Origin: Myxococcota bacterium
Lineage (GTDB): Bacteria; Myxococcota; XYA12-FULL-58-9; JALHOP01
Assembly (NCBI GenBank): GCA_041288095.1
Contig: JBGGMJ010000082.1
Location: 16,349-80,348 of the forward strand
Length of the DNA stretch: 64,000 nucleotides
Reading direction: 5' to 3'
Part shown: positions 1,610 to 54,374 of the stretch, in pieces
How positions within the stretch are numbered: the first letter of the stretch is position 1
Layout: every line of letters begins with the position of its first letter
Notes under the pieces: generated by a model
Told to the model about the DNA's origin: nothing
The model's database searches: none
Seen by the model: only the letters and a program-made list of their open reading frames with translations
Translations under genes and position numbers: made by a program

Positions 1610-1637
1610 GAAACCTTCCTCCGACTTCCGCCGATAT
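1610..1637 (+). promoter_or_regulatory. Putative sigma28/FliA-like promoter
   Basis: GAAAC-N15-GCCGATAT, ending 8 nt before the ATG at 1646. Confidence 0.5.
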
Positions 1638-1645
1638 GGCGCTAC

Positions 1646-2503
1646 ATGTCTGAGGTTCCAACAGCCACTCGTACGTCGTTATCCACCGCTCTCGTTGTAG
1701 GGGAGCAGTCTAGATCGCTCGCGGTCGTCAAACCGTTCACGACGCCGGTCGTCTTCGAGCGCCAGTCGCGGTTCCAGGACCTCATGGAGCTCCGCGGCCA
1801 AGAGCCGAAGCCCGAGCTCTTGCGCTATCGCCTGCTGAACCGCCCCGCCTCGTGGGGTGTGGTGCTCGCCGCCGCGACCGCGGCGATCGGCGCACCGGTT
1901 CTCGCGTTCATGGCGCTGCCTCTCTGGATGGCGGCCGTCGGGGCGGGTGGCGCGCTGGTCGTGGGATCGGCTGTCGGCGCCTTGTTCGAGGCGACCTCGC
2001 CGCTGGCGCTCGTGACCCGCCTCAATCACCTCCGCGAAGCCGACCTCAAGTTCCTGGGCGATCTCTCCGAAGCGAGCCCCATCGAGCAGGCCATCGTCGG
2101 TAGCCTGGCGACCCGCTGGGTGAGGCGCATCGACAACCAACGCGTCAACGGTGAAGCTGCCTATGCAAACCTCGAGGACATCATCGCGCACGCGAAAACG
2201 TTGCCCGAGGATGTGCGCCAGCGTGCCGACAAGATGGTGGCGCTGTACGACGCGACCAACGATCACAACGGCAAGCCGCTCGAGAAGATGACCGACGACC
2301 AGGCCCGGAACCTCATCAGCGCCTTCCAGAGCCTGCCGGTCGAGGATCAACCCGTCGTCGCGCACGAGCTCATGGTCCGCTATTTCAAGGGCGAAGTATC
2401 GCGCCACGGCGTCGAGAGTCATCAGAAGGCACGCGATCTCTACCGCGCGCTCCGCGACGGCATGAAGGCCGTGCCGCCCGTCAGCCTACCGCCGGCGAGC
2501 TAG
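1646..2503 (+). CDS. Orphan protein with Ser/Thr-rich N-terminus and a bilobed hydrophobic hairpin
   Basis: 285-aa ORF. About 45-aa hydrophobic stretch WGVVLAAATAAIGAPVLAFMALPLWMAAVGAGGALVVGSAVGALF; no signal peptide; no recognised family. Confidence 0.7.
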   Translation: MSEVPTATRTSLSTALVVGEQSRSLAVVKPFTTPVVFERQSRFQDLMELRGQEPKPELLRYRLLNRPASWGVVLAAATAAIGAPVLAFMALPLWMAAVGAGGALVVGSAVGALFEATSPLALVTRLNHLREADLKFLGDLSEASPIEQAIVGSLATRWVRRIDNQRVNGEAAYANLEDIIAHAKTLPEDVRQRADKMVALYDATNDHNGKPLEKMTDDQARNLISAFQSLPVEDQPVVAHELMVRYFKGEVSRHGVESHQKARDLYRALRDGMKAVPPVSLPPAS

Positions 2504-53800: not shown

Positions 53801-54306
53801 CGTGCGTTGATGTTGCGGTGGAACTGCTCGACGAACGCGCCCAGGCGCTGCTCGCGGGACATGCCGTCGAAGGTCGGGCGTTTGACGTTGGTGCCGCGCC
53901 AAACTGTCGCCGCGCTCTGCAGCAAACCATCCATGAGCTGTCGCGACTGCTGCGCCTGCTCGCGTGGGACGCTCGCGCCGTTGGGGGCGGCTTCGGCGAT
54001 GAACGCGTAACAACCCGCGCCCAAGAGTTGAAGGTAGAGGCGAGCGGCGGCGAATGATTGATCGGCGGTGCCGTAGCGCGGGTCGGTCGCGATAGCGCGG
54101 AAGGTGAGAATCTGGCGATCGTCGAGCCCGGCGCGGCGAGCCGCTTGCTGCAGGCGGGCGGTGGCGCGCTCGACCGATTGCGGGTCGTTCACGTTCAAGA
54201 GCGCGCCCACCTCGGCGACATCGGGCGCTGGTAACGTGGGTCGCGGCAGCCCTTCGAGTGGGGCTCGTTCTGGGGCGGCGCTCTGAACGGTACGGGGCTG
54301 AGTCAT
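47881..54306 (-). CDS. Giant 2141-aa protein with annexin-like repeats, Gly-rich hydrophobic helices and a Pro-rich repeat linker
   Basis: GGGGAG RBS; open for 6.4 kb; annexin-like segments such as AIERILMFRSPAELQRLDAQMRETYGKSLREVL; hydrophobic segment VANIAVTAALVGAMAL...WMSVIGGGTGLA; no signal peptide. Confidence 0.8.
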   Translation of the reverse strand: MTQPRTVQSAAPERAPLEGLPRPTLPAPDVAEVGALLNVNDPQSVERATARLQQAARRAGLDDRQILTFRAIATDPRYGTADQSFAAARLYLQLLGAGCYAFIAEAAPNGASVPREQAQQSRQLMDGLLQSAATVWRGTNVKRPTFDGMSREQRLGAFVEQFHRNINARQPFRAAMDAARNHMLTPQGQRAFADAAAGAPAPRATAQAVQGLTFPSATVVRTAGDIASVRHNGRSPRAFTMGPPVAARPLTRSGPRPASGADPYAPMAPAAAAQHRDRPPERIKGTDIAWTPDAVAQYIEQNTNDERRIDVLHGLRLPDRVAVAEAYARRRGQSLQGQQALAFLSEQMAGRGTGTNAQIFRDLLRPENTSGITSEHILIYSDATGGGFLSRLTGIGGPNHQAIERILMFRSPAELQRLDAQMRETYGKSLREVLQLVNVREGRERLLFIHDLPGREQGLGEVPQAELQAWNMRVALDEFERGFLGNAANAIQAFSSVQWHDVFRPLAMMSNAEVRQVAAAYHRQQVAAGRQVEGGDGLTGNVADSAYGRAVLAAQAHVTRLAPSRQAHDLRTRIALQGLRFDPQQHMPPRQAGETENDYRERVTAAINAAEVPHRTLVAQYVAATLSAASHGHLTTADTQFALSLIRRTPPPGQPFDANGRPFVGEVSAFWQQMGGVQQIQPSEEAQLIAMVRAANRSVRGTREQENTWNLMAGDGADSPMSRSVQLMAALQGSMGMFSGPYRQRTYAFLDMRNVPEGQRNDFMAQMRAAYYQLSGGRMLNADVQQAFGPSITLPNGAVIPSQAARLVERGVLSNAERVIYSLYEPGLFGVVRADNIQAVSQILSELSPLEKFIAREEFTRLTGTDLRAVVDAYPGREARMASLALRIHPHERDLLGAQAMIYLNAPTTDAALEARRAQLLGVNQEVLTDFWSRNFYDQAGLDAMRATVNARGGAAQFSIGAVDSTADLHASIDAATRAALGNGLTRGIQDFLSNSREGIQIRRRALEELTARAQRDIEATGAVSPDTQREMGLLVRDLRQRFIDRGRDVDQATELVANIAVTAALVGAMALQPQIGAIWMSVIGGGTGLATRMALGQVDTATQALGIFIRDAAKGLATQQTALMMSYMPADAPLLWHAAAGASAGYNHGAITSVANFITDPMLWRIDPSQALSDFEYNFANATNSGMAWGAASGLIFGYIRREAQRNSRPPDRPTEPNPDPGTQPGRPTDPDRPVTGGPDRPVTPGPDRPVTPGTPTRPSRPDGNISTPGGPTPGRPSGRPDSQLGTPGGPTPGRPSGRPDSQLGTPTGPTPGRPGVGPIVHPGDNMRPPVTGGTGTARPPVDGGNVRPPVTPPRDVSVTPGAVPPSGRLPSTNTGIGGVTGGRVGMRSAAIPNTGYTGTFSTTDPGAALNIGIMHWGAVATAGVTNFGTTLSTTQRAAVDEMGRRIATTPIPLVEVRNALQSMSREENREVMRNAAAGFVFSAFAYLQATGGLPGPESEPTHFNTLLDLAWQDAGVANGRDPRSVSRAAKVRELVTHYYQQPDAPIQPQPAPRDSNQRDPSVPQVPGSEEPRAPAGPGRAPAQFYQQLAQATRPRLDRVSRAWIDANLQSALAFRTGEQVQRFPDGGVEYWTALLRRLPDKRLPDVIRDDAESLRAFGYNMPTDRNRQEAVSEGLVAARARALQVAHLGGTRDAPQPLTVPQLFERLPQLRDFMAAATGNTPAEMGKLDEPALASAIQGYKQRLAAQPRTAAIMQGAAQGPIIDHRTLEAHQSAAGVAGPDALPQAPAQRRQAFDQALEALRAAPDDQVAARSGEAVRILELIYSSNMPDQDRDRDVNAIAEAVLGQQPQSRATRVAGFLMGTQGSQVMAREVWNRIYAQLSNEEKAAIAMGIAGNIRAADAPAPAGTIPLDLNAISVDVLRSLDRLPLTQPPGYEEAARQLRLVSIARLLNAGEINKVVPDELRFALLHGSPQLLSMVAFAAQQVPGGQALLINQFVELANAGRADRVGRVLQSLAATQDARYQQYAVDLASALWRAEIIRRIDWRRQDDLAVATAYDQLAETPQAPPSEFSPLIAAMNRSENGRAAMRQMMSAVQFDATLESPGFIKRLRDSHEARIYDRFRAMLNRPMEIPGPPQQ
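50363..50503. repeat. 57-bp tandem repeat (about 2.5 copies) encoding GTPGGPTPGRPSGRPDSQL
   Basis: Units start at 50390 and 50447, with a partial copy at 50363-50389; in-frame coding repeat. Confidence 0.9.
50543..50614. repeat. 24-bp degenerate tandem repeat x3 encoding PDRPVT(P/G)G
   Basis: Units at 50543, 50567 and 50591. Confidence 0.85.
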
Positions 54307-54347
54307 CAGCAGCTCCCCGACGCCGGATCACCGACGTCGTCAACGAC

Positions 54348-54374
54348 AATTCGATCGACGGTACAAGCACTTAG
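54348..54374 (-). promoter_or_regulatory. Weaker match to the sigma28-like motif upstream of the giant gene
   Basis: Minus-strand CTAAG-N14-ATCGAATT, same spacing as the other copies. Confidence 0.3.

Follow-up and report, generated by a model that had tools for sequence, protein, structure and literature searches.

What reads a bipartite sequence motif that recurs upstream of otherwise unrelated orphan genes, set one at a time among housekeeping genes, and what do the genes behind it share? The question is raised by a stretch of 64,000 nucleotides (nt) from contig C82 (positions 16349-80348; hereafter the window), which belongs to the metagenome-assembled genome (MAG) of an uncultured Myxococcota bacterium of a marine lineage (G000; 5.85 Mb in 212 contigs, 66% G+C, approximately 90% complete). 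An initial annotation of the window had proposed that the motif is a sigma28-like promoter shared by a dispersed set of candidate secretion substrates. Our analysis supports the promoter and enlarges the set. Overall, the motif is best explained as a promoter of the FliA family (sigma-28-like) with the canonical -10 element GCCGATAA and a -35 element shifted to GCAAC, an interpretation that we consider likely on the basis of the sequence comparisons described below. With even somewhat greater assurance, the genes behind it can be viewed as a large sigma-28-type regulon of accessory genes with fast turnover, which appears to be tied through its promoter to late genes of a nonflagellar type III secretion system (T3SS).

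Genes were called with a codon-usage model trained on G000. The calls numbered 5043, and 2952 upstream regions had a length of 40 nt or more. Across all of these regions, the most strand-asymmetric 6-, 7-, and 8-mers were CGATAA (194 sense and 73 antisense occurrences), CCGATAA (97 and 30), and GCCGATAA (56 and 18). When 375 upstream CGATA sites were aligned, a second block, G-C-A-A-C, appeared at one fixed distance. This spacing is independent of any weight matrix: AAC-N16-CGATAA was counted 95 times and its N17 variant 47 times, while spacers of N14, N15, N18, and N20 yielded 8, 6, 9, and 12 occurrences, and the reversed, non-complemented pattern occurred 2 times compared to the 95 of AAC-N16-CGATAA. 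An iterated two-block weight matrix, built genome-wide from approximately 525 sites, converged on (C/G)GCA(A/C)C-N14-GCCGATAA. Its -10 block reads G-C-C-G-A-T-A-A over 8 positions with C, G, and A at 98-99%, confirming the initial assignment of this element to the sigma-28 consensus, from which the copies in the window deviate at 0-2 positions. In the -35 consensus, (C/G)GCA(A/C)C, the central A alone is strongly kept (91%). The spacer is N14 in 265 of 309 sites (87%) and N15 in 44.

Sites scoring above 12 bits were found in sense orientation in 385 of the 2952 upstream regions (13%). The share fell to 1.9% when the antisense strand of tandem gene pairs was scored and to 0.9% when the sequences were shuffled. 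Intergenic DNA, which makes up 7% of the genome, holds 349 sites of at least 16 bits, compared to 221 in coding DNA, corresponding to a 20-fold higher intergenic density. The sites face towards genes, and 334 dispersed genes lie behind sites of at least 16 bits. Because of these upstream and intergenic matrix counts, we estimate the size of the regulon at about 330-350 promoters, far beyond the scattered handful of genes described initially. Contig C92, which carries most of the T3SS genes discussed below, contains 5 sites of at least 14 bits in 68.6 kb, approximately the genome average, which indicates that the regulon is truly dispersed; in the window, eight strong sites were identified compared to 3.65 expected.

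The distance between the C of CGA and the start codon peaks sharply at 13-15 nt (approximately 40 genes), which places these start codons at a leaderless position, provided that transcripts start 8-9 nt past the -10 element. Most of the remaining regulon genes have short leaders of 10-50 nt. A division into two promoter sub-classes was considered and rejected, since leaderless and leadered sites share -35, -10, and spacer make-up; this likeness, therefore, offers no handle for assigning two sigma factors to them. We likewise rejected a general housekeeping promoter, as core housekeeping genes account for 0 of 30 proteins in a random regulon sample and the motif is missing from 87% of upstream regions. 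Within the window, in agreement with the initial annotation, no site of at least 12.5 bits precedes the genes for RlmN and QueG or the other eight domain-bearing genes that were scanned.

The genes behind the motif turn over rapidly. Three species of the same genus (G030, G066, and G086) were compared, with synteny of the window followed in G030 and G066 and with empty sites and turnover assessed from BLAST coordinates and tblastn. While the window genes without the motif have a median identity of 92% in G030 and 90% in G066, the seven genes behind strong motif copies show 49, 0, 55, 0, 0, 28, and 82% identity in G030 (median 28%) and are mostly absent from G066 (median 0%; p < 1e-4 vs the other genes). 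Gaps of 55-117 bp remain at the empty sites. The peptidase gene at 8374 is absent from G030, and its slot in G066 is occupied by a different leaderless gene of 503 amino acids (aa) with its own 19.3-bit promoter. In corresponding or neighbouring intergenic slots, G030, in turn, carries a cassette with a 653-aa gene and a 21.4-bit promoter between two genes that lie 20 bp apart in the window, leaderless genes of 146 and 408 aa where the window has 49 bp, and further cassettes with genes of 353 and 244 aa. Where orthologues persist (1646, 12963, and 27009), the promoter was retained and the protein diverged. These alignments show gain, loss, and replacement of promoter-plus-gene units between conserved housekeeping genes inside a single genus. 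Since the same slot holds either nothing or another gene in the related species, the initial description of genes inserted singly among housekeeping genes was correct, and the inserted units can be described as promoter-plus-gene cassettes. At the junctions inspected, no inverted or direct repeat flanks were seen.

A sigma28-like factor and an export apparatus, on which the initial proposal depended, are both encoded elsewhere in the assembly. FliA_WhiG is the best NCBIfam match of two proteins (C127:21744-22571, 166.1 bits; C92:35188-36072, 163.7 bits), the second of which is encoded within a T3SS locus. The nonflagellar T3SS comprises one FHIPEP protein (SctV/FlhA), SctU with a TPR chaperone-like gene behind it, and, on C92, a run of SctQ (FliM/FliN-like), FliO, SctR, SctS, and SctT together with YscO-like and FliK/SctP-like proteins and a needle-like gene. 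Four genes in one orientation end with the C92 sigma gene; the first three encode a Gly-rich protein whose C-terminus is needle-like, a TPR protein, and a small protein. The motif is present approximately 120 nt 5' of the needle-like gene (17.1 bits) and, on C41, in front of the gene next after SctU and its TPR chaperone-like neighbour (19.6 bits). The needle-like gene behind the same promoter leads us to infer that the regulon is co-activated with late T3SS parts. The sole SctV/FlhA gene is located apart from the other T3SS genes (G000:C31:1185-5395) and is followed by a 478-aa protein behind a weak motif copy (14.8 bits); an RpoH gene lies 2.3 kb from this locus.

Among 101 genomes of the phylum, for which motif excess and sigma orthologues were profiled, an excess of the motif goes along with the presence of a C92-type orthologue (p = 2e-4). 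Clear orthologues of the C127 type are confined to the genus and two other genomes. In the approximately 9-Mb genomes of the sample, the sigma orthologue is 45-46% identical and the motif excess is small (7-20 vs 2-6). The reader of the motif is most likely the FliA-like sigma factor encoded on C92, although the C127 paralogue, or both, are possible readers. Close relatives of one of the sigma factors were found in marine and other environmental MAGs labelled Myxococcota, some of which are recorded as 'Bdellovibrionales' in the European Nucleotide Archive.

The products of the regulon are unusual in several respects. In the window, a Pfam domain was assigned to 1 of 9 motif genes (the S41 peptidase) but to 10 of 10 scanned genes without the motif (Fisher p = 1e-4), namely those for a PfkB kinase, an aldehyde dehydrogenase, an SLT transglycosylase, RlmN, QueG, M20 and M61 proteins, a TPP enzyme, a cNMP-binding protein, and a TonB-dependent receptor. 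Genome-wide, 11 of 30 random regulon proteins had a Pfam match at E <= 1e-5, compared to 17 of 20 controls drawn at random from first-in-unit genes (p = 0.0012), so that the description of the downstream genes as orphans holds at both scales. The 11 matched proteins are an M74-like murein endopeptidase, a protein with a sub-threshold Flp-pilin match, an FAD oxidase, a Ser/Thr kinase with a PEGA domain, an ATP-grasp enzyme, a calpain (C2), a subtilase (S8), an AXE1 esterase, an alpha/beta hydrolase, a clostripain (C11), and a PAS histidine kinase; they include five peptidases without signal peptides and no core housekeeping protein. A link to Tad/Kil systems was rejected, as the Flp-pilin match concerns a single regulon gene, is below threshold (30.6 vs 32.2 bits), and is not accompanied by neighbouring tad genes. 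On contig C90 (gene 12 of the gene calls), a 621-aa regulon protein combines a HEASH zinc-protease-like motif with an Ala/Ser/Pro-rich N-terminus and has no Pfam match; it may serve as a good first candidate for a secreted enzyme.

Sec-like N-termini were predicted for 18 of 334 regulon proteins and for 568 of 2522 control proteins (5.4% vs 22.5%, p = 3e-16), and the depletion persists when any alternative start codon is allowed (15% vs 35%). Among proteins without a Sec-like signal, the summed fraction of Pro, Gln, Ser, Thr, and Asn in residues 2-26 is 0.314 in the regulon vs 0.243 in controls (p = 6e-23), while Leu, Glu, Lys, Phe, and Tyr are depleted in the same segment of regulon proteins; in residues 61-160, the bias is nearly gone (0.236 vs 0.222). 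Signal-less proteins with one or two internal hydrophobic segments amount to 20% of the regulon vs 12% of controls. By these heuristics, the initial observations of mostly missing signal peptides and Ser/Thr-rich N-termini are also seen genome-wide. Such features fit type III substrates, and they likewise fit disordered cytoplasmic orphan proteins.

These features bear directly on the strongest alternative, according to which the regulon is, largely or entirely, an arsenal of T3SS effectors that are injected or exported. A fourfold depletion of Sec signals, a compositional bias limited to the N-terminus, the internal hydrophobic segments, fast turnover, the sigma gene in the T3SS locus together with the same promoter on the needle-like gene, and the signal-less S41, S8, C11, C2, M74-like, and AXE1 proteins, enzymes that normally act outside the cytoplasm, would all be accounted for. 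However, approximately 330 promoters are unusually many for an effector set, the missing Sec signal suits cytoplasmic proteins just as well, and the sample holds a PAS histidine kinase, a Ser/Thr kinase, an ATP-grasp enzyme, and an FAD oxidase. As kinases and enzymes of this kind are included, applying the term effector arsenal to the whole set goes too far, and we regard this alternative as rather unlikely. Of the initial proposal, the shared promoter thus stands, while its target set goes beyond candidate effectors. That a substantial share of the regulon products is T3SS cargo is a more modest claim, which we see as a serious possibility, though somewhat less likely than not.

A second alternative assigns the motif to a canonical flagellar FliA that the 90%-complete assembly does not contain; the regulon would then be a motile-phase program, similar to the attack phase of Bdellovibrio, without relation to the T3SS. 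All three species of the genus have an entire flagellar locus, in which there is a second FHIPEP gene and, following flhA-flhF-flhG, a third FliA; in G030, the locus (G030:C2:115000-152000, loci L074-L075) contains rod and hook genes, flhA-flhF-flhG-fliA, flgM, flgK/L, and flagellin. Moreover, the motif counts in these species (87-130) are similar to the 95 in G000, and the FliA of Bdellovibrio drives 92 of 140 attack-phase promoters, including those of proteases and proteins of unknown function (PMC3627812). The flagellar promoters themselves argue otherwise. Upstream of flagellin and flgM in G030 (C2:146286-146442 and 149329-149558), they read CTCAAGGTT(T/C)C-N10-11-G(A/T)CGATG. With the GCAAC matrix, their scores stay below 13 bits, which places these two late genes outside the GCAAC regulon. 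The GCAAC-type sites of G030 precede orphan genes, some of them within the flagellar locus: sites on the minus strand at C2:125614 (23.0 bits) and in the region of 133793 (18.3 bits) lie before orphan open reading frames (ORFs) of 98 and 122 aa. The G000 assembly contains neither genes for flagellin, rod, and hook nor a second FHIPEP gene; the flagellum was either lost in this lineage or its locus lies within the missing 10% of the MAG, and yet a full GCAAC regulon is present. A flagellar-type promoter was also sought in G000 and discarded, since the sole CTCAAGGTT...CGATG match is a chance occurrence inside dnaN, and none is intergenic. As the GCAAC and CTCAAGGTT classes share the -10 element and differ at -35, we argue that a FliA paralogue, and not the flagellar FliA, reads the GCAAC class; reading by the flagellar factor appears improbable.

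Less probable still is that a sigma factor of the extracytoplasmic function (ECF) type, and not a FliA-like one, recognizes AAC-N16-CGA. It is generally known that AAC at -35, a CGA core at -10, and a spacing of 16 nt are typical of ECF promoters, and Myxococcota encode many ECF sigma factors. However, the extended -10 element GCCGATAA, conserved over 8 positions, is a signature of sigma-28, approximately 330 promoters far exceed known ECF regulons, and the motif both tracks the FliA-like orthologue in the phylum and occurs on genes of the very locus that encodes a FliA-like sigma factor. That the motif is no promoter at all but a conserved terminus of mobile cassettes, or a binding site of a transcription factor travelling with inserted genes, would suit units that act as insertions and deletions between conserved genes, but is hardly credible for a bipartite, gene-facing element with one fixed spacing and a start-codon distance suited to transcription initiation, including the leaderless peak, which also precedes conserved genes such as the needle-like gene, is found in distant families of the phylum, and lacks repeat flanks at the junctions inspected.

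Several observations nevertheless weigh against a FliA-family promoter tied to the T3SS. The -35 element is GCAAC, and the canonical TAAA of sigma-28 (TAAAGTTT or TCAAG) is not found; to our knowledge, this -35 is unlike that of every characterized sigma-28 promoter, and AAC-N16-CGA resembles ECF-type promoters. Both FliA/WhiG-like sigma factors score under the curated NCBIfam cut-off of 189.6 bits, and ten genomes show an excess of the motif without a C92-type orthologue. As the assembly is approximately 90% complete and without a flagellar locus, a third, flagellar FliA may exist unassembled. Furthermore, the regulon holds plainly cytoplasmic-type proteins (the PAS histidine kinase and the ATP-grasp enzyme), the N-terminal bias could reflect the disorder of orphan proteins and no secretion signal, and the signal-peptide and N-terminal statistics depend on our own gene caller and a crude hydrophobicity rule.

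Taking these points together with the evidence for a FliA-family promoter, the following mechanism can be proposed. Each copy in the window, located 13-100 nt before a single gene, would drive that gene alone. Genome-wide, the promoter would define approximately 330 transcription units, which encode mostly lineage-specific proteins without known domains or Sec signals in addition to signal-less peptidases and hydrolases, and the regulon would be switched on with late T3SS parts, similar to the class-3 genes of flagellar systems. A more far-reaching version, in which a duplicated FliA with its -35 preference retuned from TCAAGGTT to GCAAC became the master switch of the nonflagellar T3SS and the promoter tags several hundred cargo proteins that are swapped as single-gene cassettes in an arms-race-like manner, possibly with prey, is speculative and in our view doubtful.

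The individual sites and genes of the window are compiled below. All seven main copies reported initially were recovered at their positions with the -35 elements and spacers given for them. The grading of the copies had to be revised in three places: the copy before 17642, which had been called weak, is strong; the other supposedly weak copy, before 54306, is unconvincing (best upstream site 13.0 bits); and the copy before 43338, which had been counted among the main ones, is present but borderline, and the conserved lipoprotein gene behind it is probably not a regulon member. A further strong site on the minus strand, at 5904-5878, was absent from the initial list.

Table. Motif copies and associated genes in the window (positions from the first nucleotide of the window; promoter scores from the two-block matrix; identities refer to same-genus species).
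Feature	Position	Strand	Remarks
Promoter GAAAC-N15-GCCGATAT	1610..1637	+	16.7 bits; kept before 49%-identical G030 orthologue
Orphan gene, 285 aa, internal double hydrophobic segment	1646..2503	+	No Pfam domain
Ribbon-helix-helix-like ORF, 63 aa	5703..5894	-	Paralogue of 5412-5663
Extra copy CCAAC-N14-ACCGATAA	5878..5904	-	20.0 bits; overlaps start codon of 63-aa ORF
Promoter GCAAC-N15-GCCGACAA	8298..8325	+	15.7 bits
S41-family peptidase, 496 aa, without signal peptide	8374..9864	+	PF03572, 2.6e-29
Promoter GCAAC-N14-GCCGATGA	12909..12935	+	19.5 bits; promoter of G030 orthologue 18.6 bits
Orphan gene, 88 aa	12963..13229	+	No Pfam domain; 55% identity in G030, absent from G066
Promoter GCACC-N14-ATCGATAA	17591..17617	+	19.1 bits
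Orphan gene, 177 aa	17642..18175	+	No Pfam domain; paralogue of 21785-22321 (43% identity)
Promoter CGAAC-N14-GCCGATAA	21734..21760	+	18.3 bits
Orphan gene, 178 aa, paralogue of 17642-18175	21785..22321	+	No Pfam domain; absent from G030 and G066
Promoter GCAAC-N15-CCCGAAAA	24777..24804	+	16.9 bits
Orphan gene, 175 aa, C-terminal hydrophobic segments	24839..25366	+	No Pfam domain; 28% in G030, absent from G066
Promoter GAAAC-N14-GTCGATAT	26973..26999	+	18.9 bits; kept in G030 (18.9 bits) and G066 (20.6 bits)
Orphan gene, 154 aa, hydrophobic segments	27009..27473	+	No Pfam domain
Borderline copy GCAAC-N15-GCCGAGAA	43214..43241	+	14.0 bits; approximately 100 nt 5' of lipoprotein gene
Conserved lipoprotein gene	43338..44708	+	Signal LAAC; 94% and 89% conserved
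2141-aa protein without signal peptide	47881..54306	-	Faint annexin match, E 0.0012; 77% identical in G030

The start codons at 1646 and 27009 lie 8 and 9 nt past the -10 element, respectively, so that both transcripts are probably leaderless. The orphan protein encoded at 1646 has one homologue (54%) among 5.8 billion proteins and is 49% identical in G030 and absent from G066. Its slot (window positions 992-2500, compared with G066:C4:45000-52200) contains several kb of unrelated DNA in G066 and 0.9 kb here, which, judging from this alignment, is an insertion hot spot. Orphan 27009 is 82% identical in G030 and 72% identical in G066, values lower than those of its neighbours.

For orphan 17642, the search of the same 5.8 billion proteins returned a self-match only, and 22 genomes of its order contain nothing besides the paralogue at 21785 and one weak 32% match; it is absent at the syntenic sites of G030, G066, and G086. 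Its AlphaFold2 model (predicted local distance difference test score, pLDDT, 77; predicted template modelling score, pTM, 0.64) found no fold match in the PDB using Foldseek (best E 0.14, TM 0.2), and an apparent resemblance to actin capping protein was dismissed as not significant in this search. For both paralogues, the fold, predicted with fair confidence, consists of three helices at the N-terminus, an antiparallel sheet of four strands, and a C-terminal helix of 50 residues. The additional minus-strand site at 5878-5904 may serve gene 5412-5663, which lies downstream, as an internal promoter. This gene and 5703-5894, both on the minus strand, encode small ribbon-helix-helix-like paralogues in tandem with the motif ...LYFP.DML.E.Q.E..RQDRS.SW..QQAW.IAR.E., and both are 91-98% conserved among the species of the genus.

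Among known systems, the FliA regulon of Bdellovibrio and the HrpL regulon of Pseudomonas are the nearest analogues. The -10 element and the control logic are those of class-3 flagellar promoters, which are read by sigma-28 (FliA/SigD/WhiG) and follow TAAA-N15-GCCGATAA. The two share the same 8-nt -10 element, a similar spacing, a sigma factor of the FliA/WhiG family, and late external parts of a type III export machine as targets, here the needle-like gene. They differ in that the -35 element here is GCAAC instead of TAAA or TCAAG, no flagellar genes are present in the assembly, almost all of the approximately 330 targets are nonflagellar, and the sigma factors score below the family cut-off. 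A second parallel is HrpL, an ECF sigma factor whose hrp box is GGAAC-N16-CCACNNA. As is proposed for the locus on C92, an alternative sigma factor encoded with the T3SS acts through one box on T3SS genes and on dispersed, variable genes, effectors and non-effectors, and the box provides a handle for finding effectors. In Pseudomonas syringae and its relatives, this box marks dispersed targets that vary between strains (PMC3879358). Targets of HrpL are proven secreted effectors acting on plants, whereas the sigma factor here is of the FliA type and its targets are candidate cargo.

In Bdellovibrio bacteriovorus, FliA is a global attack-phase regulator with TTAAG-N16-CCGATA at 92 of 140 attack-phase promoters (PMC3627812). 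There as here, a sigma-28-type promoter was recruited for proteases, surface proteins, and many uncharacterized proteins in a lineage with predatory members; however, Bdellovibrio uses a single flagellar FliA with flagellar genes in its regulon, while the reader in G000 is apparently a paralogue with another -35 element and a Sec-depleted regulon. Chlamydia likewise kept a FliA-type sigma factor with a nonflagellar T3SS and no flagellum, but its sigma-28 regulon is reported to consist of two genes (PMC10597470), compared to several hundred promoters here. Within the Myxococcota, the nonflagellar T3SS* of Myxococcus xanthus, described as needle-less, is needed for contact-dependent prey lysis, and the review describing it names no substrates (PMC10849154); the system of G000 differs from it by the needle-like gene behind the motif. 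In a literature search with partial journal coverage, we found no paper linking a FliA-type sigma factor to a myxobacterial T3SS or describing such a regulon.

The genes behind the motif represent the first sequence-defined candidates for the cargo of a myxobacterial T3SS. If read by a sigma factor from the T3SS locus, the promoter provides a purely sequence-based list of co-regulated candidates, as the hrp box did for the effectors of plant pathogens, and if the promoter indeed tags cargo, the motif alone would list the substrates of myxobacterial T3SSs genome by genome. Furthermore, the system suggests that a flagellar control circuit can outlive the loss of the flagellum, or its separation from it, through duplication of FliA and a change in -35 specificity. 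It also illustrates a pattern of genome evolution in which single-gene cassettes, each equipped with its own alternative-sigma promoter, turn over between conserved genes. Should the encoded proteins prove to be cytoplasmic, the result would still be a sigma-28-type regulon that is both large and new, from a marine lineage not yet in culture.

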